64,000 nt of DNA from a virus, in IMG/VR virus record IMGVR_UViG_3300027724_000010, positions 5,815 to 69,814 of that record; one strand, written 5' to 3'. The notes under the pieces are model-generated. The model was not told the DNA's origin. It saw only the letters and a list, made by a program, of their open reading frames with translations, and ran no database searches. The position numbers and the translations under genes are program-made. Each line of letters begins with the position of its first letter. Within the stretch, counting starts at the first letter, position 1. This document shows positions 637 to 55,763 of this stretch, one piece after another.

Positions 637-3600
637 TGGCGTGTAAAATAAGTGTAAAAGATACAGTATATAATAGTATTGCTAATATAGCAGGTAGTGA
701 AGACGTATTCAGTAAAGAAGCAGCAATTAAAAAAGCTAGACGTATTAATGCTATATGGGGTGATAAAACAGCTACTATAACTCAATATAGAAGTGAAGGT
801 GGTTATAAAGTAGTTACTCATAACCTAGATAAAATAATAGAAAGAGAGTATGAAAAACAATTAAGAATCGAACAAAATTTAAATCAACAACTTGGTAACC
901 TTAATAACGATATACCTACTTCTGAAGCTGAAGTATCAATAGAAGAAGAAGTATTTGATAATACTTTCGAATTCTATAATGTTAACAATCCAGATAAACT
1001 TAGACAATCACAAATACGATCTTTAAATAGTTTATTAGATAGATCTGTAAGAGCATTAGGATTTACTAAAACTACTATAAAAAAATATAATGAAGATTAT
1101 CAACGTAGAAATCCTGGTAAAAAGTTAAATCAACAAGGTCTTATAAATCTAATAGATAAACAAATTGCTCTTGGTGAGAGATCTGAAATAGATGGTGTAA
1201 CTTATGCTGAAGAAGTATTTCATGGTATTGTAGCAGCTAACGAAACAGCTCAGGAGTTTCAAGATATAATCAATCTTAGAGATGCTGATGGTATATTAGA
1301 AATATCTAAAACAGATATATATAAGAAAAATTATGAAACTTATATGTCTGCTTATGGTGGTGATGAGAATAAAGTTAAATTAGAAATAGTAGGTAAACTA
1401 CTTGCTCAAGCAATATATGATAAATTTGCTTATGATAGTATACCACAAAAACTATTAAGAGCTATTGATAAATTCTTTTCATTTTTTACAAAAAAACTAA
1501 GATTAGCTAATCTATTAGATAGAAATCAATTTAATAAAGATTTGTATGCTGCTTTAGATATAGTTATGGAGAATTGGCAAAACGATATGTATAATCATCC
1601 GTTTACAACTGCTGTTCCAGTAACTGTTCCATTTGTTTTTAAAGAAATAAATAATTTTGAAGATACTATTATAAAAAATACATCAGAATTACGATCTAAA
1701 GTTAGACAATTAGAAGAGAGACAAGGTGGATTGATAGGTAACTATAATACAAAATATGAAGATTTAACTAAAAAATATTCAGGAATATCTAATAAAACAA
1801 AATATCTAGCAGATTTAGAAGCTAAAGCTACGAAAACACCATTATCTAGATATGAGCAACAGCAAGTCTCAGAATTAAAAGAGTATTTTATTCTTAAAAA
1901 TATAGATGATATAGATGTAAATAGAGAGAAACAAGTAAAAACTATTAATGGTAGAATAAAAGAAATAAATAATCTAATAAACAAAAATAAACTACAATTA
2001 GGTATACATACTTATTTTTTTGGTATTAATAATAGTGGTGGAGCAAATGAAGATATAGAACAACTTTATAAATATATGCAAAAAGTTGTTAAACAAAAGT
2101 TATTCTTGAGTATGGAATCTTGGCACAGCTTAAACGAATCTTATAACTTACATATAAATATCATAAACGAATTGCGAGCTTGGTACCAAGATAGTAGTAA
2201 TGGTAGAAATGAGTTTCCAGAGTTAACAAAAGAACAAAATAAAAGATTAAAAGATGTTGTATTTGGATTAAAAGTTAAGTTGGATTGGATAAATACATCA
2301 TTAAATTCTTCTGCTAAATCTGTTAAAAGAGATTTTCATAAAAAATATGTAGATTTAAATCCAAATATAGATACAACTGAAAATAATAGTTATACAGAAA
2401 TAGGTAACTTTAGAAAATATTTCGGATCACTTAGAAACGCGCAAGACGAAACTGCTAGATTATTCTATAAAACAATAATGGATGTAAATAATTTAGTTCA
2501 TAATAAAGTATTAAATAATACTATAGATTTTTATAATAAACATAAAGATCTTATAAAAAGAATGGGTCCAAAAGAGTTTAATAAACTTAGAGAAAAAGAT
2601 GCTAGTGGTAATCAAACACATTATTGGTTGAGTGATAGATTAACAAGCGTATTTGAGTTTAATTATAATTCGTTTAGAGAAACAACTATTAAAAATTTAA
2701 TAATATACGCTAAACAAAAACATAACAAAGATTATAACATACCGTTTGATGAGTTCGAGTTATCTGAGTTTTTTAATGCTACAACTTTAAATAATATTTC
2801 TTCTGCTGTATTAGATAACGAATTACTAATAAGAGAAGAATTGCGTAATATGTATAATGCAGCATATGGTAATTGGATAAGTTTAAATACAGAGCTTAAA
2901 TACAACTATGAAGATATTATAGAACAGCGTAGACTATCTATGAATAAAACTAAATTTGCTAAATGGTTACAATTAAATGCTCCTACTCATACATATACTA
3001 AAAAAGATGGTACAGTTGTTACTACTGTTATTTATAAAGGAGAACTTATTAAACCATCGAGCGGTCAAAAAAACCTATTAGGTAATCTAACAGAAGATTA
3101 TACAAATCCAGAATACAATAGATTAAGATCTACTAATCCAGAATATATAGAACTATTAGAAGATCTAAAAGAAAAATCGTTAGATGCTAAGCGTAAATTA
3201 CCTTTACATAATTACTCATGGGAGTACTCAGAAAGATTACCACAAGTATCTAAATCTACTATGGATTTATTTGGTAGTAGTTTATCTAACTATACTGAAA
3301 AATTTAAAGAATCATTTTCAGCTAGACCAGATGATGATATGTATGCTAATAGAGCTGGTAATACAATATTAGAGAGACCACCTATTAGATTTATAGAAAA
3401 GATAAATCCAGATCTAATAACAGATGATTTATTTAAATCAGTAATGATGGTAGAAGAAATGTCTGTTAATTTTGTAGAGTTTACTAAAGAATTACCTACT
3501 TTACATGGTATATTAGATTTAGTTAAACGCGGAGATGTTGTAGACAAAGGTATAAGACTATCTAAAAATCCTAGAGATTCGGTATCTGATTTAGAAAAAA

Positions 3601-5144
3601 AGATGAGAGATGTAATGCTTAGAAGTGTATACGGTGGTAAAGATGAACAATCTTATAATCTAACTATAGGTAGTGTAGATCTTAATAAAGTATTAGATAG
3701 ATTAAAGAAGTATATACGTAACGTTAGATTGTTAGGTAATACTACTGCACAACTTACAGGATATTTTTCAGCAATGCTAAATAAAAGTGAAGAGATATAC
3801 GCTAAAAATTTAGATGGTAAACTATTATTAGAGTCTGAAAAAGAAATGTATTTACATACTATAAGTATTACTAATGATGCTATATCTCCTATTAAAACAA
3901 GTAAACTAACTGCTGCATTACAATACACAGGGTTAGTAACTAATAACATAGAGACCTTTGCTAATGTTAATAGAAGTAAATTATTAAGAGCAGCTAGTAA
4001 AACTATTAATTATGGTGGTTGGGAAACTATAGATGTACTTGTTAAATTACCAATTATAATGACAATAGCTAAAGAAATACGACTTGTTAATGGTAAATGG
4101 TATACTAAAAATAGTTATACAGTAGATGATGATGGTTGGTTAAATGGAGAATCTTTATGGGGTATGATGGAGTTAGAAGATAATAAAATAAAATTTGATC
4201 CTAGAGTAACTCAACAAGTAAAAGATTTATGGTTAACCAAATCAAGAGTATTAGCTAATCAAATAGATGGTCAACTATCTGATTTAGATAAAGCCTCTAT
4301 ACATAATCACTTTCTTTTTAAGTTTTTTACAATAAATATGAACTGGTTATATGAAAGATTAGATAGAGGATTTAAAAAAGAAATATTTGATTGGCAAACA
4401 CAACAAGTAGAAGGTGGTTATTATGTAGTAATTTGGAGAGCTATACAAAGATCACCAATACAATTTGTTAGTGATGTATTCAAACATAACGATCAGTTTA
4501 CAGAATTAGAAAAACAATCATTACGTAGAGTAGCTCACACCTTAGTAGCAGCTACAATGTTATTTATGTTTGTTTATATAGTAACTGCTATATCTTTAGA
4601 TGACGATGATGATGACGACAATCCAATGCTAGCATATTTTATATACATACTTAATAGATTACAGATGGAAGAAAACTCTAAAACATCATCTGTAGATTTA
4701 TTCTCGTATATTACAAGACCAGCAGATGGTATAGATCAATTGGACGATTATTTACCAATAGTAAAATGGATAGCATTTTTAGCTGGAGAATCAGAAGAAG
4801 TAGAATCTGGTATATATAAAGGTTACGATCAAAGTACTAAAAAACTTATACAAGCTACCCCACTATTAAAAGGTTTCTATGAAAATATAGGTGGTGGTGT
4901 AATAAACGAAGCGTTAGGGAAACCAGAAACAAGTATAACAACAGCTATTAGTGGTAAAAACCAAGTAATAAAAAGTAAAATAAATAGCGATATGGGTAAC
5001 TTAGCTTTAGTAGGTATGGGATTATTTACTAGATTTTCTGGATGGGCGTTAGGTAGAACAATAGCACCAGTAGTATCTAAAAATTATAAATCTAGTTTTA
5101 TGGATTTACCTACTAAAAAAGCTCAAAAAGATAAAAATAAATAG
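636..5144 (+). CDS. very large (~1503 aa) coiled-coil-rich virion-type protein, possibly a tape-measure or internal/ejection protein; the true start is likely the ATG at 636 that overlaps the upstream stop
   Basis: single uninterrupted 4.5-kb ORF, long K/E/N/L-rich helical stretches, one C-terminal hydrophobic segment followed by a poly-Asp tract (LDDDDDDDN); no catalytic motif recognised. Confidence 0.8.
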   Translation: MACKISVKDTVYNSIANIAGSEDVFSKEAAIKKARRINAIWGDKTATITQYRSEGGYKVVTHNLDKIIEREYEKQLRIEQNLNQQLGNLNNDIPTSEAEVSIEEEVFDNTFEFYNVNNPDKLRQSQIRSLNSLLDRSVRALGFTKTTIKKYNEDYQRRNPGKKLNQQGLINLIDKQIALGERSEIDGVTYAEEVFHGIVAANETAQEFQDIINLRDADGILEISKTDIYKKNYETYMSAYGGDENKVKLEIVGKLLAQAIYDKFAYDSIPQKLLRAIDKFFSFFTKKLRLANLLDRNQFNKDLYAALDIVMENWQNDMYNHPFTTAVPVTVPFVFKEINNFEDTIIKNTSELRSKVRQLEERQGGLIGNYNTKYEDLTKKYSGISNKTKYLADLEAKATKTPLSRYEQQQVSELKEYFILKNIDDIDVNREKQVKTINGRIKEINNLINKNKLQLGIHTYFFGINNSGGANEDIEQLYKYMQKVVKQKLFLSMESWHSLNESYNLHINIINELRAWYQDSSNGRNEFPELTKEQNKRLKDVVFGLKVKLDWINTSLNSSAKSVKRDFHKKYVDLNPNIDTTENNSYTEIGNFRKYFGSLRNAQDETARLFYKTIMDVNNLVHNKVLNNTIDFYNKHKDLIKRMGPKEFNKLREKDASGNQTHYWLSDRLTSVFEFNYNSFRETTIKNLIIYAKQKHNKDYNIPFDEFELSEFFNATTLNNISSAVLDNELLIREELRNMYNAAYGNWISLNTELKYNYEDIIEQRRLSMNKTKFAKWLQLNAPTHTYTKKDGTVVTTVIYKGELIKPSSGQKNLLGNLTEDYTNPEYNRLRSTNPEYIELLEDLKEKSLDAKRKLPLHNYSWEYSERLPQVSKSTMDLFGSSLSNYTEKFKESFSARPDDDMYANRAGNTILERPPIRFIEKINPDLITDDLFKSVMMVEEMSVNFVEFTKELPTLHGILDLVKRGDVVDKGIRLSKNPRDSVSDLEKKMRDVMLRSVYGGKDEQSYNLTIGSVDLNKVLDRLKKYIRNVRLLGNTTAQLTGYFSAMLNKSEEIYAKNLDGKLLLESEKEMYLHTISITNDAISPIKTSKLTAALQYTGLVTNNIETFANVNRSKLLRAASKTINYGGWETIDVLVKLPIIMTIAKEIRLVNGKWYTKNSYTVDDDGWLNGESLWGMMELEDNKIKFDPRVTQQVKDLWLTKSRVLANQIDGQLSDLDKASIHNHFLFKFFTINMNWLYERLDRGFKKEIFDWQTQQVEGGYYVVIWRAIQRSPIQFVSDVFKHNDQFTELEKQSLRRVAHTLVAATMLFMFVYIVTAISLDDDDDDDNPMLAYFIYILNRLQMEENSKTSSVDLFSYITRPADGIDQLDDYLPIVKWIAFLAGESEEVESGIYKGYDQSTKKLIQATPLLKGFYENIGGGVINEALGKPETSITTAISGKNQVIKSKINSDMGNLALVGMGLFTRFSGWALGRTIAPVVSKNYKSSFMDLPTKKAQKDKNK

Positions 5145-5781: not shown

Positions 5782-5832
5782 TTTATTAAAGTTTGTGTTG
5801 TTATTTCTAAAGCATATAATGTAGCATCTTCA

Positions 5833-7403: not shown

Positions 7404-8453
7404 TTAATACTCTTTTCTTATCTTTAATAACAATTTTTGTAATTGTTTTTGATTTACTTCTCTTGGTAATCCGATTTTATTTTCTTCAAATAACTTTTTA
7501 ACTTCTTCTTCTAAATTAGAAGCTAATTCTATTATTTCTTCATAAGAATATTTACCATTACGGATATCTATTAATTGATCTTTTTCTGATCTATTTAATA
7601 TCAATCCATTACCTAATATAATATCTTTAACAGTATATAATAATCTTACACAATGAGATAAATTTTTAGTATCATATTCGTTAGCTACTTTAGCATTATC
7701 TTGATATCGTAAGGGATTACGTTTTTCTAACCATTCTTGATACTCTCTATAATCTTTACAGTGTGTAGAATAAGCATTACGATCAAAGCGCATATATTTT
7801 AAAAATCTACTATCTTTAGGTATACTTTTTAGTTGTACATCATTACTATTTTCATTTATTATACCACCAGCTTTTCCTAAATAATACATACTATAAATAT
7901 CAGGAAAATTATTTACAGACGCTAATCCTATATCATTTTGATTTTTACTAATTATTTCAAAATACTTAGTTAATGATACAGAAAACTCTCTATCCATAAG
8001 TACATAACAAAAATCTAATGGTGTTTTACGCTCCATTCTAGTTTTCTCCCAGTTAGTTTTCTTATTCATACCTTTAGCTTTTTTAATCTGACTAAACGAA
8101 TATCCTAAAAAAGTATGTTTTAGTTTAGTAGTTAAAAAAGGTGTAATATCTGGAAAGTATTCTTTCCATTTATCAGTTGTAAAAGTAATTTTATCGCTTC
8201 CGAGTATATCCACAATATTAGGATTACCTTTAACTAGTAGTTCTATAAATCTACCAATCTCGTAATAAGTAATATCTTGTTTAGCATCGCTTATTTGTTC
8301 TATATATCGTCCAGATAATATCATACTAGTAGGTAGGATATAAACACCTTTAATGTCTATATCACTACCTTCTTTATTTGTACCATATAAGTGAGAACCA
8401 ACAATACATTCGTGTATTATCCATCCACTTTTTTTGAGTTGTTCTACATTCAT
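7404..8453 (-). CDS. Pol-beta superfamily nucleotidyltransferase (predicted-NTase family), substrate unknown
   Basis: N-terminal GSHLYGTNKEGSDIDIKGVY matches the [GS]x9-13 DxD minimal NTase signature; 349 aa. Confidence 0.7.
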   Translation of the reverse strand: MNVEQLKKSGWIIHECIVGSHLYGTNKEGSDIDIKGVYILPTSMILSGRYIEQISDAKQDITYYEIGRFIELLVKGNPNIVDILGSDKITFTTDKWKEYFPDITPFLTTKLKHTFLGYSFSQIKKAKGMNKKTNWEKTRMERKTPLDFCYVLMDREFSVSLTKYFEIISKNQNDIGLASVNNFPDIYSMYYLGKAGGIINENSNDVQLKSIPKDSRFLKYMRFDRNAYSTHCKDYREYQEWLEKRNPLRYQDNAKVANEYDTKNLSHCVRLLYTVKDIILGNGLILNRSEKDQLIDIRNGKYSYEEIIELASNLEEEVKKLFEENKIGLPREVNQKQLQKLLLKIRKEY

Positions 8454-14496: not shown

Positions 14497-14550
14497 ATCT
14501 GTACTTTATTTTAGTACAAATATACACATTTTATTTTACTTTTTATTATA

Positions 14551-15201
14551 TTATTTCAGAATATTTTCTAATTTATCTTTTCTTTCTGAATATAATAAAT
14601 CAGGATCAACAATATCATAAACATGATATTTTACATTTTCTGTTTCTCCTTTTCTATACTTCTTAATAAGTTTCATATTATCCTGAAAACCTAATCCATG
14701 AGCGTATAATTCTCCATCTAAAATAATATCTTGTGGAGTAATTTGTAATAATTCTTTTTGAATATGTTCCATATTTTCAATAATTCTACCATCTCTAGAG
14801 ATTAATTTAGGAACTCTTCCATCAGCGTATATATGAGCTAAACAACGCATACCATCTAACTTTGGTTGTACAAAACAATTATTCCAATCTATTTTGTGTG
14901 CTTCGTCTTTATAAGATTTAGCTAGCATTGGTAGTTGTACTGTATTATCTTCTGCTTCTTTTTCTGTTAAAAAATATCCTTCTTGTAACTTAGAAGCAAT
15001 TATAGAATTAACTTCTAATACTGCTTGTTGTTCTGCTGTAGTAGCGTTAGCTTTACCTACATTTTTAGGTTTAGCAACTTTAGTATGTTCTACTTCATTT
15101 GCTGTACCAACCATACCAGAACGCTGTATAATACTACTACCATTTGCTATTACATTTAAGTATCTAGTATTTCCATGACTATCTTTACGATATATTATCA
15201 T
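14551..15201 (-). CDS. ATP-dependent DNA ligase, N-terminal fragment (adenylation domain motifs I-IIIa)
   Basis: KLDGMRC (motif I KxDGxR), ILDGELY (motif III) and YHVYDI (motif IIIa). Confidence 0.8.
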   Translation of the reverse strand: MIIYRKDSHGNTRYLNVIANGSSIIQRSGMVGTANEVEHTKVAKPKNVGKANATTAEQQAVLEVNSIIASKLQEGYFLTEKEAEDNTVQLPMLAKSYKDEAHKIDWNNCFVQPKLDGMRCLAHIYADGRVPKLISRDGRIIENMEHIQKELLQITPQDIILDGELYAHGLGFQDNMKLIKKYRKGETENVKYHVYDIVDPDLLYSERKDKLENILK

Positions 15202-43197: not shown

Positions 43198-44109
43198 TTA
43201 AATTATTTCTTGATTTTCAATTTTATTAACAATTTTATAAGCTTGTGATATATACCAATCTTTGTTTAGATTAGGATATCTCTCTTTTATCTTTTCAACT
43301 TTAATTCCTTTTTTGTAATCAAATATTTCTTCTTTTGGTATATTTAAAGCTAATGTAACTGGTGTATTAGCTTCTATAGCATCTATACCATCTTGTTTTT
43401 TACCTTTAGTCCAAAATTTAGATATTGTTTGATTACCACCAGCATAGTATCGTAAAAATCTATGATTCATCAATTCTGATTTAGCTACTTTAAGATCGGG
43501 ATTATAAGTAGTTAATAACCAAGAATAACTACCAGATCCTTTTACTCCATAACAAAAATCATAAATATTATTATGATTGTTTATTGTATCTTCTATAGGA
43601 GTACCATTTTTAAAATATTCTTGTAATGCTTGTGGTATAATAGAAGCAGAAGAATCTTTATGATATGCTCCTGATTTTATTAAATCAGCATGAGTTTCAA
43701 ATACCCCTTTGGTTTTGATATCTCCAGATTCTGTGATTGCTAAATAATTGTTTATGTCCCGAATTACATATTTTCGGTAAACATTAGTTTCATATGGTAT
43801 TTTACATATATTAGTTATTTCTTCAAATATAGAATTTAATAATTCTACATCTTTTCGTTCTACTAATATTTCTATACCATCAGTATTTTTAGATAAAATC
43901 GTTGCAGTGGGAATTCTTGTATATATTTTATCTGCTAGCATACAAATGGTTAATATGCCATTTATAGTAGTAAATAAAGTAAATTTTGTATCGTATAATG
44001 CTGAATATTCAGAATTAGATAGGCCAAAAATTAAATTTATAAGAATCTTTGTGCTATAATTCAATAAATATTGAGTTTTTTTATCGTACGTTTTTCTTTT
44101 TTCGTACAA
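43198..44109 (-). CDS. family-B DNA polymerase, C-terminal exon (motifs B and C); the annotated start is an alternative codon and the exon probably begins upstream
   Basis: KILINLIFGLSNS (KxxxNSxYG-like motif B) and LSKNTDGIEILV (DTD-like motif C). Confidence 0.5.
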   Translation of the reverse strand: MYEKRKTYDKKTQYLLNYSTKILINLIFGLSNSEYSALYDTKFTLFTTINGILTICMLADKIYTRIPTATILSKNTDGIEILVERKDVELLNSIFEEITNICKIPYETNVYRKYVIRDINNYLAITESGDIKTKGVFETHADLIKSGAYHKDSSASIIPQALQEYFKNGTPIEDTINNHNNIYDFCYGVKGSGSYSWLLTTYNPDLKVAKSELMNHRFLRYYAGGNQTISKFWTKGKKQDGIDAIEANTPVTLALNIPKEEIFDYKKGIKVEKIKERYPNLNKDWYISQAYKIVNKIENQEII

Positions 44110-45137
44110 TCCCTCTAATAAATTACAATATATTTCTGAAGGTATATGCTTTGGAGATACCTTATTTTTAAATTGTAAATGCGGATAATAACTTACACTT
44201 TTTGTTATCTACTATTACTAGTAGTGTCGGACTATTTCTTAATTTTACGCCAAATAAATCCATATATAGTTGGTTTATATCCATTGCATACTGCATAGAT
44301 ATTTTGCCATTTCCAACTAGGATTTTGTTGTAGAATATCTTCTACTGAGTTCCATATTTTTATAAGATTCATATTTTTATCATATTGATAAAAACAATTC
44401 ATCTTTTGTTTAGCTTTACTAACATTATCACTCATTATGAGTTTAACATTAGGGTTATCTCTCCAGAATATTTTAGATCTATTACCTATTTTAGTAGCTC
44501 TACTGGGATTATTTTTATAACTTTCTAGTTGGGATTTAGACATTAGTTTTTTAGTTTCGTCACTAACTATATTAGATTCATCACTATTATCCGATCTTAA
44601 ATTATATCCACAACGTCTATCTAAAGACGTATAATAATTCATCCAATATAACTCTCTATTTTTCAATAAATCTTCATCTCTATCTAAAACTTCAATAACT
44701 ACTGTTTTAAAATTATCAGCTCCATATTTATACCAAGAATTTATTAAATGTCTATTTTCATCTTTACTTTTAGATTTTAGAGTAGATCTATGATGAACTA
44801 ATCTTTTATATATATTATAAGATCTTCCTATATAAATTTTATTATTTATAATATTTATAATACCATATATCCCACATACGTTATATGTTTCTTTTCTATT
44901 TATAATCATATTTTATATTTTAACTAACGGCAAAGATAGTTAAAATATTTAATATTGCGTAAAATTTTGGACGCTTTTTCATTATAGTTTATGTATTATA
45001 CTATAACTACTTCCTGTTATTAAGATATATCGCTATATCTCAGGTAGTCTCTGCACCTTCTCTCTCTGAGAGCTTGGCTCAAGATTATCCTAACTATAAA
45101 ATTAGGGTTTCCTTGAATTCATCCAATAGTTTTAGTT
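44110..45137 (-). mobile_element. group I intron in the DNA polymerase gene carrying a GIY-YIG endonuclease ORF
   Basis: minus-sense R-like GTGCAGAGACTACC (~45040) and S AAGAAATAGTCCGAC (~44213-44228, just 3' of the endonuclease ORF); the exon-1 ORF ends inside PolB motif A (…FDFN). Confidence 0.55.
44232..44909 (-). CDS. GIY-YIG homing endonuclease
   Basis: CGIYGIINIINNKIYIGRSYNIYKRLVHHRS (GIY…YIG…R…H) then E…N in the catalytic domain, followed by a basic DNA-binding C-terminal half. Confidence 0.8.
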   Translation of the reverse strand: MIINRKETYNVCGIYGIINIINNKIYIGRSYNIYKRLVHHRSTLKSKSKDENRHLINSWYKYGADNFKTVVIEVLDRDEDLLKNRELYWMNYYTSLDRRCGYNLRSDNSDESNIVSDETKKLMSKSQLESYKNNPSRATKIGNRSKIFWRDNPNVKLIMSDNVSKAKQKMNCFYQYDKNMNLIKIWNSVEDILQQNPSWKWQNIYAVCNGYKPTIYGFIWRKIKK

Positions 45138-46112
45138 CTACTCTGTTATGTTAAAGTCGAACGTTATGATTACAAATTTTTCATTACTTTCGTATATACC
45201 CGATTCTACTGCCGAGTGGATCCCTCCAGATCCTATTTGTGTTGTTAATCCTTTATATGTAATAGATTTAGATACTGAATTTTTCAAACTTATAAGTTTT
45301 TTATCTGAATTGATATTACTTTTTAAAGTAGGTATCAAGGTTGTAGACTTATAAAATTCTAAAATCTCATTATATATAGGTAAATTAAATTTAATATACG
45401 GTAATATTATATCTTTAATATCTATTTTATCATAATAAGTTCTTAGTTTTGAAAAATCTCTAGTATCAATACTCATAGCTTGTGATAAATATTTATAAAA
45501 ATATTTCTTACCCATATCTGGTTCTGGAGAATTTAATATATCAATCTTATGAAGATTACCAAACTCTATTCTAAGCTTAATTAGTTCTTTTGTTATATTA
45601 AATACATCTCTAGTTACTTCTACGTCATATTTACAATATTTAATAACTTCATTAACTTGTGCTAGTGTTTTTATTTCGTCATTAAAATGATACGGTAAAT
45701 CTTTTATACTTTTTTTTCTAAGTATAAACTCTAAAGCTTTTAAACTCGTAGTTTTTGCTCCGCGTGGTCCATAATTATTTACTAACATGAGATCTATTGT
45801 TTTATTACACAATTTATCTTCTCTATAAATAGGCCACTCACTATTTATTAACTCATCATTAAACTCTTTTATTTCTTTTGCTGTAGATAATCCTGCTTTA
45901 ACTATTCTAGTTAAAATATTCATATCATAACCTAAAGAGTTATAACCAATAAAATAAGTATTTTCGTTATCTTTTAGATATTGTCGTAAATCTCTTATTT
46001 GATTGATATCATTCCACACTGTAAATACTGTATGTTTATTTTCTTTTGGATCATAAAATACAGCAACAAACAAATTTACATAAACTTCCAAATCGAACAG
46101 GACTAATTTCAT
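45138..46112 (-). CDS. family-B DNA polymerase, N-terminal exon (3'-5' exonuclease domain up to motif A)
   Basis: Exo I LVLFDLEV, Exo II FIGYNSLGYDMNIL, Exo III YCKYDVEVT, and the start of motif A ITFDFN at the C-terminus. Confidence 0.65.
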   Translation of the reverse strand: MKLVLFDLEVYVNLFVAVFYDPKENKHTVFTVWNDINQIRDLRQYLKDNENTYFIGYNSLGYDMNILTRIVKAGLSTAKEIKEFNDELINSEWPIYREDKLCNKTIDLMLVNNYGPRGAKTTSLKALEFILRKKSIKDLPYHFNDEIKTLAQVNEVIKYCKYDVEVTRDVFNITKELIKLRIEFGNLHKIDILNSPEPDMGKKYFYKYLSQAMSIDTRDFSKLRTYYDKIDIKDIILPYIKFNLPIYNEILEFYKSTTLIPTLKSNINSDKKLISLKNSVSKSITYKGLTTQIGSGGIHSAVESGIYESNEKFVIITFDFNITE

Positions 46113-51324: not shown

Positions 51325-53163
51325 TTACGAACACATTTCTCGTACTAAGTCATACCGATTGGACTGGTACAAACTTTTTAATGGAGTATATATATCGATA
51401 ATATCCATATCAGATATTTTTGTAAATACCTGATTTATTGTACTCATATTATAAGTACAAATATGAATAACATTTTCGATATTATCGAAATATCCAGATT
51501 TATTTACAGAATCTCCAAGCTTTGGTACATCCCATAATACTATTACACCATCCCAGCTAAACCACTGTCTCATTTTCATCTGAAAATCAGCCATACTAGC
51601 TGCTGCGGAGTGAGAGTTGTTTAAATCACCATCAGATATTACAAGCATAACTTGATAATCGCTGACTTGCTCTCTTCTATGTGCTTTTTCTACTTCACTA
51701 GTAGAAGAATCTACCCATTTACGAATATTTTCAGCTATCCCTGTAAAGTTAGTTGAACCCATACTAGCATTAACAAATGCTCCAACACTATTAAAGTTAG
51801 TTTGGAAATCTGCTTCTCTATCTACTAATTTACTTACTACTACTGATTGTTTACCCATAAATCTATTATTAGATGTTAGAGCTGTACTTTGATCTGTAAT
51901 ACAATCAGTTGCTGTACCAAATCTAAATAGTAAGTTATCCATTTTGTTTGGATTCTTTAATAAAGCAAGAGTTGTTAACAATCTAGCAATCTGCATAGGT
52001 CTACCATTCATGGAACCACTACAGTCTACTATTGGTAGTAATGGTACATTAAACTCTACTTTGTCGAGTATTGCTTGTATTGTAACATCTGTGGCTTTAC
52101 CTTGTAGAAATTGCTCAAGATAACTAAACAAAGAAGTAGCACCAACGGTTACTTTAGCATCTTTAGTAACTTTAGCTAATTGAGCTTTCTCATTGTCAGA
52201 TAAACCAACAGTAGATGCTTTAGCTTCTAGAATACGTTTTTCTTGTTGTAGTTTAAGTTTAGATTTCTCCCAATCTAAAAACCATTTAGACAACTTGGTC
52301 CATTTAGTTTTTGGTTTATCATCACCATCTAACAATCTACGTCTAACTCTATATCTAGCACCACTTGGTAGCGTGTTTATCCAATTTACAAACTGTTCTT
52401 TATCAAACTCAGCAATTTTACCAGTGGAAAACAATACAAACTCTAAATTTTGATTATATTGTTTTTGCCATTCTTTATACCCAACAAATGCGGTATAATT
52501 TTCTTTTACATCAACTAACCACTCCATCTCTTTCGATAAATCTAATACTAATCTATGATAGCATTTCATTTTATCTTTGGTTCGATTCTGAAGTTGTCTT
52601 TTACCTGTAACTGTGCCGTCTTTTTTTTTAGCTATTCTAGCACTAGATCGTGGTATATGTACAAATTTTGCTACTTGATGTTTCATAAAAGGGTTGTTAC
52701 CCCTAATATATTTAGCAAGTAATTTTATCAATCCAGTATATGCAATAGGGTTATTTTGAATTATATTTAACAATCCCCATACACCAGTAATAGATTTCTT
52801 ATTAGTTTTTATTTGAAGAGTTACTAACTCTCTTAAACCAACATATTCTACTATTAAAGGCAAAAATTTTACAAATGTTTTAGGTTCAGCATTAATTAAC
52901 CAACTCACATACTCTATCCATTGTGGATTAGCAGCATTACCACCAGCATCTACTTTAGATTTAAATATGTTATGTTGTCGATTAGTAATATCACCTAAAC
53001 TGAAACATATAATATGAAACAATTGTATAAACATATTGTTATCCCCTGCTTCTCTTCTAGCAGCATCTAAATATTTAACAATTGATCCTTTTACGCCATT
53101 TTGAAATAGCGCAAATAAACTTTTTAACCCATAGAATGGGTTTTCATAAACTAACTTTTTCAT
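51325..53163 (-). CDS. von Willebrand factor A domain protein (CobT-like partner of the adjacent AAA+ ATPase)
   Basis: LPIVDCSGSMNG MIDAS motif in the C-terminal third; 612 aa. Confidence 0.7.
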   Translation of the reverse strand: MKKLVYENPFYGLKSLFALFQNGVKGSIVKYLDAARREAGDNNMFIQLFHIICFSLGDITNRQHNIFKSKVDAGGNAANPQWIEYVSWLINAEPKTFVKFLPLIVEYVGLRELVTLQIKTNKKSITGVWGLLNIIQNNPIAYTGLIKLLAKYIRGNNPFMKHQVAKFVHIPRSSARIAKKKDGTVTGKRQLQNRTKDKMKCYHRLVLDLSKEMEWLVDVKENYTAFVGYKEWQKQYNQNLEFVLFSTGKIAEFDKEQFVNWINTLPSGARYRVRRRLLDGDDKPKTKWTKLSKWFLDWEKSKLKLQQEKRILEAKASTVGLSDNEKAQLAKVTKDAKVTVGATSLFSYLEQFLQGKATDVTIQAILDKVEFNVPLLPIVDCSGSMNGRPMQIARLLTTLALLKNPNKMDNLLFRFGTATDCITDQSTALTSNNRFMGKQSVVVSKLVDREADFQTNFNSVGAFVNASMGSTNFTGIAENIRKWVDSSTSEVEKAHRREQVSDYQVMLVISDGDLNNSHSAAASMADFQMKMRQWFSWDGVIVLWDVPKLGDSVNKSGYFDNIENVIHICTYNMSTINQVFTKISDMDIIDIYTPLKSLYQSNRYDLVREMCS

Positions 53164-53194: not shown

Positions 53195-54301
53195 TTAAAA
53201 TGCAAATTTTGATGTTGCACCATTAAATACGTATATCTTCTCTAAAGATAATTTATAGACTTCGTTTTTAATATCTTTAATTAAATTATCGATAACAAAT
53301 ACAGTATCATCTTCAGTTACACCTTTATCTTTAGCATTAATATACTCTGTTATTTCACTTATTAATCTTTCGGAATCAATAGTTACTTTAGTATCAACAC
53401 TTATTTCTCTTTTTAGTGATTCACATAAAGCTTCTGATGGGTAATAATAAAATATCCTATCATTATCATCACTAAATCGTATAGCATTAGAAGATACACT
53501 TGGTAATCTCATTGATTCATAATACGGTTTAGAATTTTTTGTTAACGAGTAATAATATTTATAATTTTCTTCTTGTATATTTAAACAATTCGAATATTTT
53601 ATAAAATTATTAATTCCGTGTATTTTTATTACACCAACAATACTATTACATATATCATATGATAAATTTTTTATTTTACTTAAGTAATTTAATAATTCTT
53701 TTTTCATAGATATTTCTATAATACTAGAAATAAATTCTAAACCTTCTTCTGGTAATAATCTATCGAATTTAAAATCAAATATAAATCTACCAGGTCTATT
53801 AAAAAAGTAATTACTTAATTTACTTTTATCGTTAAAACTACAAATCGTAATTACTTTTTTACCAAAATCTATTCCATCTAAAAATGTTAATAACGTATTA
53901 GATGAGTCTTCTTTTGCATATAATTTTTCAAACTCATCGAAAAATACAATAACATCAGAATTTATTCTATTAATAATATCTATAATAGTATTACCAGATA
54001 ATGCTTCATCTATAAATATTGTTGGTATTTTAGATTCAATAATAAAATTTTTAATGGTTTGAGTTTTACCCATACCACTTAAACCTGAGAACAATGCACC
54101 AAAACTATTTGATTTATTAGTGTGTTCTAATAATAAATTAACATATTCGTTAGATATACCAAACATTTTTTTATATTCGTAATTTGGTAATTTACTTAAA
54201 TATGTACCAGTCATTGTTTGTACAATTTTGTAAATACCTAGTGGTAAACTATCAATGGTTTCACCACTATTAAAATGAACTTCATTATTACTTTTAATCA
54301 T
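53195..54301 (-). CDS. AAA+ ATPase
   Basis: Walker A GALFSGLSGMGKTQT and Walker B VIVFFDEFEK. Confidence 0.7.
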   Translation of the reverse strand: MIKSNNEVHFNSGETIDSLPLGIYKIVQTMTGTYLSKLPNYEYKKMFGISNEYVNLLLEHTNKSNSFGALFSGLSGMGKTQTIKNFIIESKIPTIFIDEALSGNTIIDIINRINSDVIVFFDEFEKLYAKEDSSNTLLTFLDGIDFGKKVITICSFNDKSKLSNYFFNRPGRFIFDFKFDRLLPEEGLEFISSIIEISMKKELLNYLSKIKNLSYDICNSIVGVIKIHGINNFIKYSNCLNIQEENYKYYYSLTKNSKPYYESMRLPSVSSNAIRFSDDNDRIFYYYPSEALCESLKREISVDTKVTIDSERLISEITEYINAKDKGVTEDDTVFVIDNLIKDIKNEVYKLSLEKIYVFNGATSKFAF

Positions 54302-54339
54302 TATTAAAATTTTATATTAAAAAAAATATACTATAAGAA

Positions 54340-54378
54340 TCTATCCGTAGCGGATTGACTCGGATTCGAACCGAGAGT
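54340..54378 (-). ncRNA. tRNA 3'-half-like element (T-arm plus a second hairpin); not a complete tRNA
   Basis: minus-sense CTCGG-TTCGAAT-CCGAG T-arm followed by an ATCCG-CTA-CGGAT hairpin; no matching 5' acceptor strand, D-arm or anticodon arm found. Confidence 0.3.
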
Positions 54379-54411
54379 AACCATTTGTTATTTATTATGA
54401 GTATATTAAGG

Positions 54412-54517
54412 TAAAGCAGATGGGACTCGAACCCACGACCACGGCTTTATCAGTGCTGTTAAATTATTATAAGTAGATATTCTACTATACGTGCTCTACC
54501 AGCTGAGCTACTGCTTT
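54412..54517 (-). tRNA. tRNA-like gene with a ~35-nt insertion between the D-arm and anticodon arm; anticodon-loop-like CUGAUAA (Ile GAU-like); non-canonical
   Basis: acceptor AAAGCAG/CTGCTTT, D-arm GCTC-AGCTGGTA-GAGC and T-arm GTGGG-TTCGAGT-CCCAT are all canonical; the middle is 56 nt instead of ~22 and the anticodon stem is weak. Confidence 0.35.
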
Positions 54518-54559
54518 ATTAAAATACACTATTATTAGTCTAACCAATTGACGTACTAT

Positions 54560-54592
54560 CCATGCGGATTGTATAGGACTTGAACCTATCTT
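54560..54592 (-). ncRNA. tRNA 3'-half-like element (T-arm plus a second hairpin), driven by the conserved promoter copy 1
   Basis: minus-sense ATAGG-TTCAAGT-CCTAT T-arm followed by ATCC-GCAT-GGAT; the 3' tail CAATCCGC is shared with the element at 54340. Confidence 0.3.
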
Positions 54593-54606
54593 GCTCGAAA
54601 GCTATT

Positions 54607-54649
54607 AGTTATTATAAGTGTATTATTTGTATCTTTGTCAGATGCGAGG
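54607..54649 (-). promoter_or_regulatory. sigma70-like promoter, copy 1 of a conserved 43-nt element
   Basis: minus-sense CCTCGCATCTGACAAAGATACAAATAATACACTTATAATAACT has a -35-like CTGACA, ~18-nt spacer and -10 TATAAT; 42/43 identical to 55721-55763. Confidence 0.5.
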
Positions 54650-54758
54650 GGAGTACAGGATTCGAACCTGTGTTACGAGCACCCAAAGCTATTTTAAAGT
54701 ATTATAAGTACGTAAACATACTGTATATACGCGTCCTAAACCACTAGACGAACTCCCC
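54646..54758 (-). tRNA. tRNA-like gene with a ~39-nt insertion between the D-arm and anticodon arm; anticodon-loop-like UUUGGGU (Pro UGG-like); non-canonical
   Basis: acceptor GGGGAGT/ACTCCCC, D-arm GTCT-AGTGGTTTA-GGAC and T-arm ACAGG-TTCGAAT-CCTGT are canonical; the insert is related to that of the 54412 element (CGTATA…TACTTATAATAMTTTAA). Confidence 0.35.
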
Positions 54759-54977
54759 AAAAAATCATACTATATCTACAAATTAAAAGTCTGTTGCTGA
54801 AACCAGCTTAAGTTATTATAAGTATGATTATTTCTTAATTATTACTGAACATTACACAATTACTCTTTTCTATCTCTCCAGTATCTACATTAAGTGTAAT
54901 TACAACTGGTAATAATTTTGTTATTTTTTTACCTGTTACTGTCATGTAACAAGGTATATTTGCTTTTAAAGCATCCA

Positions 54978-55648: not shown

Positions 55649-55700
55649 AGTGTGCTCACCCTGGTGAGTTTGCTTTCCGTTAAAAACACACTAATATTAA
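55590..55700 (-). promoter_or_regulatory. structured 5' leader / candidate cis-regulatory RNA downstream of promoter copy 2
   Basis: minus-sense CGGAAAGCA…TGTTTTCCG closing helix enclosing hairpins CTCACC-AGG-GTGAG and CACTTTGC-TAAAG-TGTTGG (CACTTTG/TAAAGTG), locally GC-rich. Confidence 0.35.
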
Positions 55701-55720
55701 TTTCCCTAAATCTTTTTATG

Positions 55721-55763
55721 AGTTATTATAAGTGTGTTATTTGTATCTTTGTCAGATGCGAGG
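55721..55763 (-). promoter_or_regulatory. sigma70-like promoter, copy 2 of the conserved 43-nt element
   Basis: same CTGACA-N18-TATAAT arrangement; overlaps the stop codon of the small Zn-ribbon ORF. Confidence 0.5.

Follow-up and report, generated by a model that had tools for sequence, protein, structure and literature searches.

Interrupted and circularly permuted tRNA genes sharing a helix-UAyAAU module beside a gene for a putatively Ro60-like protein in a probable crAss-like phage

Described systems closest to the array

Genes for Y RNAs lie beside the gene for the protein Ro60 in more than 250 bacteria and phages, and Y RNAs of the YrlA class carry a transfer RNA (tRNA)-like domain with a closed acceptor stem (PMC4201824; 10.1101/312249). 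In M. smegmatis YrlA, which has a 7-bp acceptor stem, RNase P cuts the RNA, CCA is added, and both halves stay bound to Rsr (PMC4201824; 10.1101/312249). In the Thermus phage phiLo, genes for two Y-like RNAs precede the Ro60 gene (PMC12135203), and permuted or split tRNA genes have been described in Cyanidioschyzon merolae, green algae, and archaea (PMC4090602, PMC4390854). This study describes an array of RNA genes on the minus strand of a 64,000-nucleotide (nt) stretch of viral DNA (IMG/VR record IMGVR_UViG_3300027724_000010, positions 5,815 to 69,814; hereafter the window), in which two tRNA genes interrupted within the anticodon stem and two circularly permuted tRNA-like units share a short module, a covarying helix followed by a UAyAAU core. 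The array consists of conserved phage RNA genes that are real and unusual. The literature searched contained no account of phage tRNA genes that are permuted, split, or interrupted by a hairpin.

The permuted unit at 54523-54624 and its orthologues present a terminal 5'-3' stem, a T arm, a closed acceptor stem, and a D arm, in the order described for YrlA (10.1101/312249). As at YrlA loci, the RNA genes adjoin a protein gene and several RNAs occur per locus, and the neighbouring protein is predicted to have a Ro60-like fold with a vWA/MIDAS domain. The locus differs from the YrlA/Ro60 system in that this protein of 612 residues has no TROVE sequence match, and in that the Ro-binding GNCGAA/CGAA is replaced by ACU-UAyAAU. 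The module also occurs within bona fide tRNAs and encloses whole ones, real anticodon arms are present in some permuted units of relatives, and the setting is a crAss-like phage with a probable Bacteroidota host.

The array resembles the permuted tRNA genes of algae and archaea in that the 3' half stands upstream of the 5' half and the leader pairs with the trailer; one motif likewise serves interrupted and permuted genes, and the inserts occupy non-canonical positions. In contrast to those genes, no bulge-helix-bulge is present, the linkers are very short (3-10 nt), the break falls at the anticodon stem or in the variable loop, and the bearer is a bacterial virus with no known splicing endonuclease. 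A likeness also exists to PeSLs, the cassettes of T4-type phages that combine a terminator with a promoter; in them, a short stem-loop is joined to a TATAAT-like element and many repeats occur in a plastic region (PMC2839356, PMC4122927). PeSLs have a -35 box and flank small open reading frames (ORFs) but do not lie inside genes (PMC4122927), whereas here no -35 box is present, the stem can bracket a unit, and the cassette lies inside tRNA genes. The combination of sigma70 -35 and -10 boxes with a stem-loop terminator was not seen in the array: a two-hexamer scan detected none of the cores and no -35 element, and the T-run is absent in two related contigs (L013 and L018), on which ground the 3' arm was also rejected as an intrinsic terminator.

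Group I introns of bacterial and phage tRNA genes exceed 200 nt, contain a catalytic core, and interrupt the anticodon loop. The inserts described here share with them the interruption of the tRNA anticodon region, but they are AU-rich hairpins of 33-39 nt inside the stem, and an Rfam search of the window gave no intron match at either interrupted gene. A group I intron was ruled out on these grounds, and a small ribozyme was ruled out because the inserts are too short, are AU-rich, and have no Rfam match.

The tRNA array and its shared module

Two minus-strand genes matched the Rfam tRNA family RF00005 over model positions 1-71 with scores above the threshold of 29 bits. The first, an interrupted tRNA-Pro(UGG) gene (54647..54758; 40.4 bits), is further supported by covariation among five orthologues and by its minimum-free-energy fold, which is a cloverleaf plus an insert hairpin. 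The second, an interrupted tRNA-Ile(GAU) gene (54412..54517; 45.9 bits), is further supported by orthologues. The original prediction, made from the letters alone, had proposed two insert-bearing tRNA-like genes at these places, and its acceptor stems, D arms, GTTCGA T loops, and anticodon-loop heptamers CUGAUAA and UUUGGGU were all seen on the minus strand. Both Rfam matches required an unaligned local insertion of 46 or 52 nt in the anticodon arm. ARAGORN called none of the four array units, and the sole tRNA that it reported in the window was the canonical tRNA-Leu(UAA) at 57774-57858. No Rfam family besides tRNA matched in the array at E values up to 10. The motif GGTTCRANTCC occurred five times exactly in the window and seven times with one mismatch allowed, compared with 1.7 expected occurrences.

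The inserts lie between nt 28 and 29, inside the anticodon stem, and not between the D arm and the anticodon region as first proposed. In the tRNA-Pro gene, the 5' part (acceptor, D arm, and nt 26-28; 54730-54758) is followed by a 39-nt insert (54691-54729) carrying the hairpin AGTATG/CGTACT (54707-54722) and TATAAT (54701-54706), and then by the 3' part (nt 29-73; 54647-54690). The minus strand reads GGGGAGU-UC-GUCU...GGAC-G-CG, the 39-nt insert, and AGC-UUUGGGU-GCU-CG-UAAC-T arm-ACUCCCC, so that ...GGACGCG precedes the insert and AGCUUUGGG follows it. In the tRNA-Ile gene, the 5' part (54490-54517), a 33-nt insert (54457-54489) with the hairpin AGTAG/CTACT (54472-54486) and TATAAT (54466-54471), and the 3' part (54412-54456) follow one another, with ...GAGCACG before the insert and GCACUGAUAA after it. 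The anticodon stems had been regarded as weak, with three of five pairs, because the two bases 5' of the insert were left out; with these counted, all five positions pair in Pro-UGG (CG and AGC on one side, GCU and CG on the other) and four of five pair in Ile-GAU. In both pairing and covariation, the 5-bp anticodon stem with its 7-nt loop is seen only across the insert of 33-39 nt. The predicted folds contain a plain hairpin between 3-7 and 15-16 single-stranded nt, with neither a bulge-helix-bulge nor paired 3-nt bulges around a 4-bp helix.

Relatives were metagenomic contigs with the same layout reached through the proteins adjoining the array (given L numbers here), supplemented by DNA pattern scans of IMG/VR contigs of about 100 kilobases (kb); the array-bearing contigs measure about 100 kb or 130-224 kb. 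In the five Pro-type orthologues, the insert occupies the identical place, 99.3% of the cloverleaf cells are paired, and 12 pairs show double changes. The pairs 27:43 and 28:42, which bridge the insert, show compensated changes (CG/CG, CA/UG, GU/AC). Ile-type orthologues keep the body and the insert while the anticodon differs from phage to phage (GAU, UGU, AUG, GUU), and the L033 orthologue has a fully compensated stem (ACA/TGT). Because the cloverleaf pairing is kept by double changes, also across the insert, these genes are maintained and are not scars, and the earlier suggestion of decaying pseudogenes no longer holds. The alternative suggestion of introns at a non-canonical position was right about the position (28/29, and 31/32 in one relative), but no known intron type fits. 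On the basis of their sequences, the two genes are best read as decoding-type tRNAs, Pro-UGG and Ile-GAU. A blastn search of the region against 50,697 GenBank phages gave no match, nor did scans of viral contigs with the ATPase protein encoded next to the array and with an exact 23-mer; the exact 16-mer ACTTATAATAACTAAT gave only single matches per contig in viral and genome contigs, which were judged to be chance.

Between the two interrupted genes lies a circularly permuted tRNA-like gene enclosed by the module (54523..54624, minus strand), supported by its fold, its arm order, and orthologues in L005, L032, L033, and L034. The 5' arm AATACACT (54617-54624) and TATAAT (54611-54616) are followed by a hairpin (54593-54603), the T arm (54573-54589), the acceptor 3' strand (54566-54572), and the discriminator G with the linker CAT (54562-54565). 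The acceptor 5' strand (54555-54561), the D arm (54538-54552), and the 3' arm AGTGTATT (54523-54530) complete the unit; after the acceptor loop it reads GGAUAGU-AC-GUC-AAUUGGUUA-GAC, corresponding to the acceptor 5' strand and the D arm. The gene is circularly permuted because the acceptor 5' strand and the D arm stand downstream of the 3' half on the same strand (54538-54589). The last array unit is a bracket module with a permuted minihelix (54325..54407, minus strand), recognized by its fold and by the permuted state of the last array unit also in L005, L013, and L034. It consists of the 5' arm AATATACT (54400-54407), CATAAT (54394-54399), the T arm (54359-54375), the acceptor 3' strand (54352-54358), the discriminator G with the linker CTAC (54347-54351), the acceptor 5' strand (54340-54346), and the 3' arm AGTATATT (54325-54332), and it stops 24 nt before the start codon of the ATPase gene.

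The acceptor stems of the two permuted units are ACAATCC-GCAT-GGATAGT and TCAATCC-GCTAC-GGATAGA, with a loop of 4-5 nt counting the discriminator base. The original prediction had described both units as half elements with a T arm and a second hairpin; the T arm stands, but what was taken for a second hairpin is the acceptor stem with a short closing loop. The 5' half reported missing at 54560-54592 is present downstream. Orthologues of the first unit retain an identical 5:68 mismatch in the acceptor stem, three of them encode A-CCA plus a short linker after the acceptor 3' strand, and the L033 orthologue has a full anticodon arm. Across relatives, 16 distinct permuted cargos were counted. A complete anticodon arm follows the D arm in the Cys-GCA and Thr-UGU cargos of L247 and in those of L018 (Thr-UGU), L310 (Ile-GAU), L307 (Ser-UGA), L242 (UCA), and L479 (Phe-GAA), and the break therefore lies in the variable loop; in close relatives of these genes, the anticodon arm is wholly absent.

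Every unit carries a covarying helix of 7-9 bp (…ACT : AGT…), followed by an almost invariant TAyAAT(A). In RNA terms, the strands are N4-6-ACU and AGU-N4-6, and UAyAAU(A) starts directly after the 5' strand. The core ACTTATAATA occurs in eight exact copies in the 64 kb, all on the minus strand and all between 51 and 61 kb, and both tRNA inserts contain the sequence TACTTATAATA, which bears out the proposed relatedness of the two inserts. The bases directly 5' of the core are always complementary to a sequence starting with AGT, and the arm differs in each copy (AATCATACT, AATACACT, AATATACT, AACACACT, AACATACT, and others). In the hairpin type, the form found inside both tRNAs, the partner arm lies a few nt upstream of the core; in the bracket type, it lies 40-100 nt downstream and encloses the permuted units and some short non-tRNA cargos. 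Helix and core stand in the same topological relation to the tRNA body in both versions. The permuted gene order, the common helix, the presence of further modules beyond the coordinates first given, and the linkage with a Ro60-like gene had all been overlooked in the original prediction.

In 44 non-identical modules from eight genomes, chosen by requiring 5-6 contiguous pairs, 94.3% of cells pair in the helix, and the covariation score was 0.563 compared with 0.160 in shuffles (0 of 500 reached it); slid registers paired at 27-43%. Because the modules had been selected by contiguous pairs, a control was run on other ACT sites. The results revealed a partner arm, by the same rule, for 47 of 83 cores (57%) compared with 5.9% of 4,607 other ACT sites, and cores falling inside ORFs had none. 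Internal non-Watson-Crick pairs in genuine helices were G.U on the sense strand in four of four cases and A.C in none of the four, numbers too few to decide. In relatives, the hexamer varies to TACAAA and TACAAG, and A-11 of the core is invariant. Integron attC sites and IS200/IS605-type DNA hairpins were considered for the module and dropped because the arms bracket cargo and differ in each copy.

Bracket modules also occur with other cargo. Module 1 (54763..54829, minus strand), directly upstream of tRNA-Pro, consists of the 5' arm AATCATACT (54821-54829), TATAAT (54815-54820), a cargo made of a small hairpin (AGCTGGTTTCAGC) and an AU-rich stretch, and the 3' arm AGTATGATT (54763-54771). A counterpart precedes a tRNA in L005, L032, and L034, and its hairpin covaries (GCTG/CAGC, GCTA/TAGC). 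Two further minus-strand modules without tRNA cargo lie at 55685..55738 (AACACACT ... AGTGTGTT) and at 59029..59081 (AACATACT ... AGTATGTT), the latter being followed by a sequence resembling a tRNA 5' half.

The adjoining protein and possible roles of the module

The gene for the 612-residue protein (51325..53163, minus strand) specifies a helical N-terminal domain and a vWA domain with a MIDAS motif (D380xSxS, T471, D511). Sequence searches with the protein revealed no Pfam family beyond weak vWA matches, no TROVE match, no match in PDB, and, by tblastn, no match in the 50,697 GenBank phages. An AlphaFold model from 37 homologues reached a pLDDT of 81, and Foldseek comparison of this model with PDB returned vWA domains only; the model is suggestive of a distant Ro60-like architecture. 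A homologue adjoined the array in 16 of 16 loci, down to 34% identity. Its position is downstream of the array in loci of the window group and upstream of it in those of the group of about 100 kb. Of two distant relatives at 34-41% identity, one of them on a TARA ocean contig, L479 has the array downstream of the gene and L480 has it upstream. Between the array and this gene lies an AAA+ ATPase gene (53195..54301, minus strand; PF00004, phrog_2376), which among the loci fetched was found only in the window-like loci L001-L006; its membership in the system is uncertain.

We tentatively favour, with somewhat less than even confidence, a role in RNA, in which the Ro60-like protein and associated nucleases would use the module as a handle or as a mark for processing. 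The array would be transcribed within a long minus-strand operon, and each unit would fold independently. As shown for M. smegmatis YrlA, units with a 7-bp acceptor stem would be opened by RNase P and then given CCA, here after ACAAUCCG or UCAAUCCG, and both pieces of an opened unit would stay joined through the module helix. Within tRNAs, the helix would carry a closing loop and interrupt the anticodon stem on its 5' side; in a permuted unit, both RNA ends would pair to form the helix, and a loop would close the acceptor stem. In every unit, UAyAAU(A) would be single-stranded beside a helix of unconstrained but covarying sequence. The gene structures, the covariation, the conservation among distant phages, the gene linkage, and the predicted protein fold are observed here; what we infer is that the helix forms in RNA, that the protein binds the module, and how, if at all, the hairpin is removed from the tRNAs.

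The RNA-level role is consistent with the covariation of the helix, the equal placement of helix and core relative to the tRNA body in hairpin and bracket versions, the compensated pairs across the insert, the occurrence of G.U rather than A.C, the TAnnTTTG type of the promoters in this genome, and the hexamer variants TACAAA and TACAAG of relatives, and the link to Ro60 with gene adjacency, the YrlA arm order, and the A-CCA of three orthologues. Several points weigh against it. The core resembles a -10 box, and cores without a partner arm stand directly upstream of ORFs in a promoter-like manner (L005:148 and L033:6978). The modules used for the covariation count were picked by contiguous pairs, the YrlA motif GNCGAAN0-1G was not seen in the array by eye, and adjacency to the protein gene might reflect only conserved gene order. 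An RNA-level role moreover offers no account of how a tRNA could decode with 35 nt of hairpin inserted into the anticodon stem.

Promoters, splicing, and mobility as alternatives

The window has about 25% G+C and is phage-like, with nearly all genes on the minus strand, and the closest similarity of its split DNA polymerase (33%) is to the enzyme of the crAss-like Cellulophaga phage phi14:2. The phage is probably crAss-like and probably infects a Bacteroidota bacterium, a host to which its promoters also point. In intergenic regions, TAnnTTTG motifs (TGTATATTTG in extended form), the Bacteroidota promoter type, lie upstream of protein genes at 14524, 17420, 30704, 36205, 40166, 44938, and 56586 (minus strand). 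The same motif lies upstream of phi14:2 middle genes, in which transcription start sites have been mapped (10.1101/2020.03.07.982082), and the phi14:2 middle promoters were accordingly rejected as a match to the core. Because the promoters upstream of its protein genes are TAnnTTTG, the TATAAT-like core is not the ordinary promoter of this genome; together with the outcome of the two-hexamer scan, this also removed a sigma70 promoter as the identity of the core.

The first alternative, which we consider rather unlikely but still live, is a promoter-terminator cassette, in which TAyAAT is the -10 element for a phage-specific or sigma70-like polymerase and the adjacent stem serves to terminate or insulate, in a manner similar to the PeSLs of T4-type phages. 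Transcription of the 5' and 3' parts of the two tRNA genes would then be separate, and the pieces would assemble into two-piece tRNAs without ligation. A promoter-bearing mini-element had also been suggested originally, and the TATAAT-like appearance of the core with its invariant A-11 agrees with this, although the variants TACAAA and TACAAG lose T-7, no -35 element is present, and the host-type promoters of this genome are TAnnTTTG. Every exact core lies on the coding strand, grouped with the others at the upstream end of the operon; two cores that have no partner arm precede start codons by 14-22 nt; and composite stem-loop/promoter cassettes are known in T4-type phages (PMC2839356, PMC4122927). 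The cargo begins 7-10 nt after the hexamer in window-type phages, but this spacing ranges over 5-17 nt elsewhere (a tRNA at 5 nt in several relatives, 12-17 nt in others). A cassette of this kind also gives no reason for covariation of the sequence upstream of the core with a sequence 40-100 nt downstream, and the 5' halves lack a core of their own.

The second alternative, which we regard as improbable, is protein-dependent splicing, in which an endonuclease cuts at sites marked by the module and the exons are then joined by a ligase such as RtcB. Canonical tRNAs would arise from the interrupted genes, and maturation of the permuted genes would involve a circular intermediate, as it does in Cyanidioschyzon merolae and archaea. 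In favour of splicing, the anticodon loops have canonical form, compensatory changes preserve the stems across the insert, and the anticodons vary between orthologues, as expected of decoding tRNAs. The anticodon arm is complete in permuted genes of relatives (Cys, Thr, Ile, Ser, Phe, and a UCA anticodon) but is wholly missing from several permuted units. Interrupted, permuted, and whole tRNAs share a single module, in the way that they share the bulge-helix-bulge in archaea (PMC4090602), but the geometry of that motif is missing. No splicing endonuclease, RtcB, or RNA ligase was found among the 25 of 44 Pfam and 25 of 85 PHROG families listed for the 101 ORFs of the window. To our knowledge, no such splicing pathway exists in bacteria.

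A DNA-level element, with inverted arms as recombination or mobility sites of small cassettes and interrupted tRNAs as insertion scars or decaying genes, agrees with the varying number and order of units between relatives, the inverted repeats flanking cassettes, and a genome rich in homing endonucleases, but is very improbable given that the insert position is identical in orthologues diverged to 55-68% protein identity, that tRNA pairing is kept by double changes, that arms differing in each copy are nevertheless complementary, which is unexpected of recombinase sites, and that the non-Watson-Crick pairs are G.U and not A.C.

Interrupted and permuted tRNA layouts thus occur together, and conserved, in bacterial viruses. 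Protein-spliced tRNA introns are a feature of archaea and eukaryotes. For permuted tRNA genes, the known bearers are a few algae and one archaeon, according to the works cited on this point in 10.1101/312249 (Maruyama 2010, Chan 2011). The tRNA repertoires of crAss-like phages may be undercounted because standard finders miss this layout, as did ARAGORN for all four units; ACT-TAyAAT with a complementary arm provides a short searchable signature. The strict linkage of the array to a divergent, putatively Ro60-like protein would extend Ro60/Y RNA biology to an abundant phage group and tie it to real tRNAs. A broader proposal, which we offer as speculation that is more probably wrong than right, is that a clade of crAss-like and related phages of Bacteroidota, together with marine relatives, encodes part of its tRNA set, possibly including stop-codon suppressors, as interrupted or permuted genes matured by protein-based cut-and-join or by two-piece assembly guided by the module and the Ro60-like protein. 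If true, this would be the first non-ribozyme system of tRNA gene disruption in the bacterial world and could be a source of the "missing" suppressor tRNAs of recoded phages.

Additional tRNA-like genes and genomic setting

Recoded crAss phages often have no detectable suppressor tRNA, which is an open question (PMC7886860). The permuted tRNA gene of L242 (about 3510-3616, minus strand) bears on it: the anticodon arm is ATACA-CTTCAAA-TGTAT, and the UCA anticodon would read the UGA stop codon. Judged from this arm, the gene may be a hidden opal suppressor.

Several related contigs carried further variants. L006 (ATPase 58% identical) has permuted tRNA genes at 1490-3060 in which a hairpin-preceded CTGATAA-N8-10-ACAGCAA replaces ACT-TAyAAT, and no homologue of the 612-residue protein was seen within its 6.4 kb of sequence. 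Two tRNA-like genes of 57-59 nt (L033 644-700 and L006 4866-4924; Rfam 41.4 bits each) have the normal arm order but no anticodon arm. The arms of a tRNA-like unit at L033 1410-1530 are apparently scrambled, the order being the acceptor 5' strand, a long hairpin, the core, a T-arm-like hairpin, an anticodon-like arm (GAGTC-CTGATAA-GACTC), and the acceptor 3' strand. Bracketed tRNAs in L001 (286-360), L032 (3892-3957), and L013 (2971-3034) have mismatches in the first three acceptor pairs (TAATACA/TGTAACT), and their Rfam alignment is restricted to model positions 4-67; the mismatches are kept between phages while the anticodon varies (CAG versus TTT). Phage tmRNA genes lie a few kb from the arrays in L247 (5507-5902; Rfam 70 bits) and L479 (1686-2198; 51 bits).

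The tRNA 5'-half-like sequence that follows the module at 59029-59081 reads GGTGATA-TT-CGTA-TAGTGGTTAG-TAC (58991-59022, minus strand). An HNH endonuclease gene on the opposite strand (58463-58990) adjoins it, and a complementary TATCACC lies about 560 nt downstream, near 58425. On these features, insertion of a homing endonuclease may have interrupted a tRNA-like gene at 58425-59022.

Elsewhere in the window, an RlaP-family nucleotidyltransferase (7404-8453, minus strand; PF10127) was the sole hint of RNA repair seen among the ORFs, PF10127 bearing the Pfam description "RNA repair pathway DNA polymerase beta family". Two ORFs, at 45138-46112 and 43198-44109, encode the split DNA polymerase, with a GIY-YIG endonuclease gene in between (44232-44909), an ATP-dependent DNA ligase is also in two pieces (14551-15201), and LAGLIDADG and several HNH genes are present; such split genes and endonucleases fit an intron-rich crAss-like lineage. 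Long non-coding regions of higher G+C lie at 62539-63713, 61364-61864, and 55650-55685 (minus strand), and phi14:2 likewise has highly expressed early non-coding regions. A repeated element, TAATGCACCACAACTCACTTCCAAAGGGTGAGCA, occurs near 63665 and 63300, and a similar hairpin, CTCACCAGGGTGAG, at about 55660, with no Rfam match at the gathering score.

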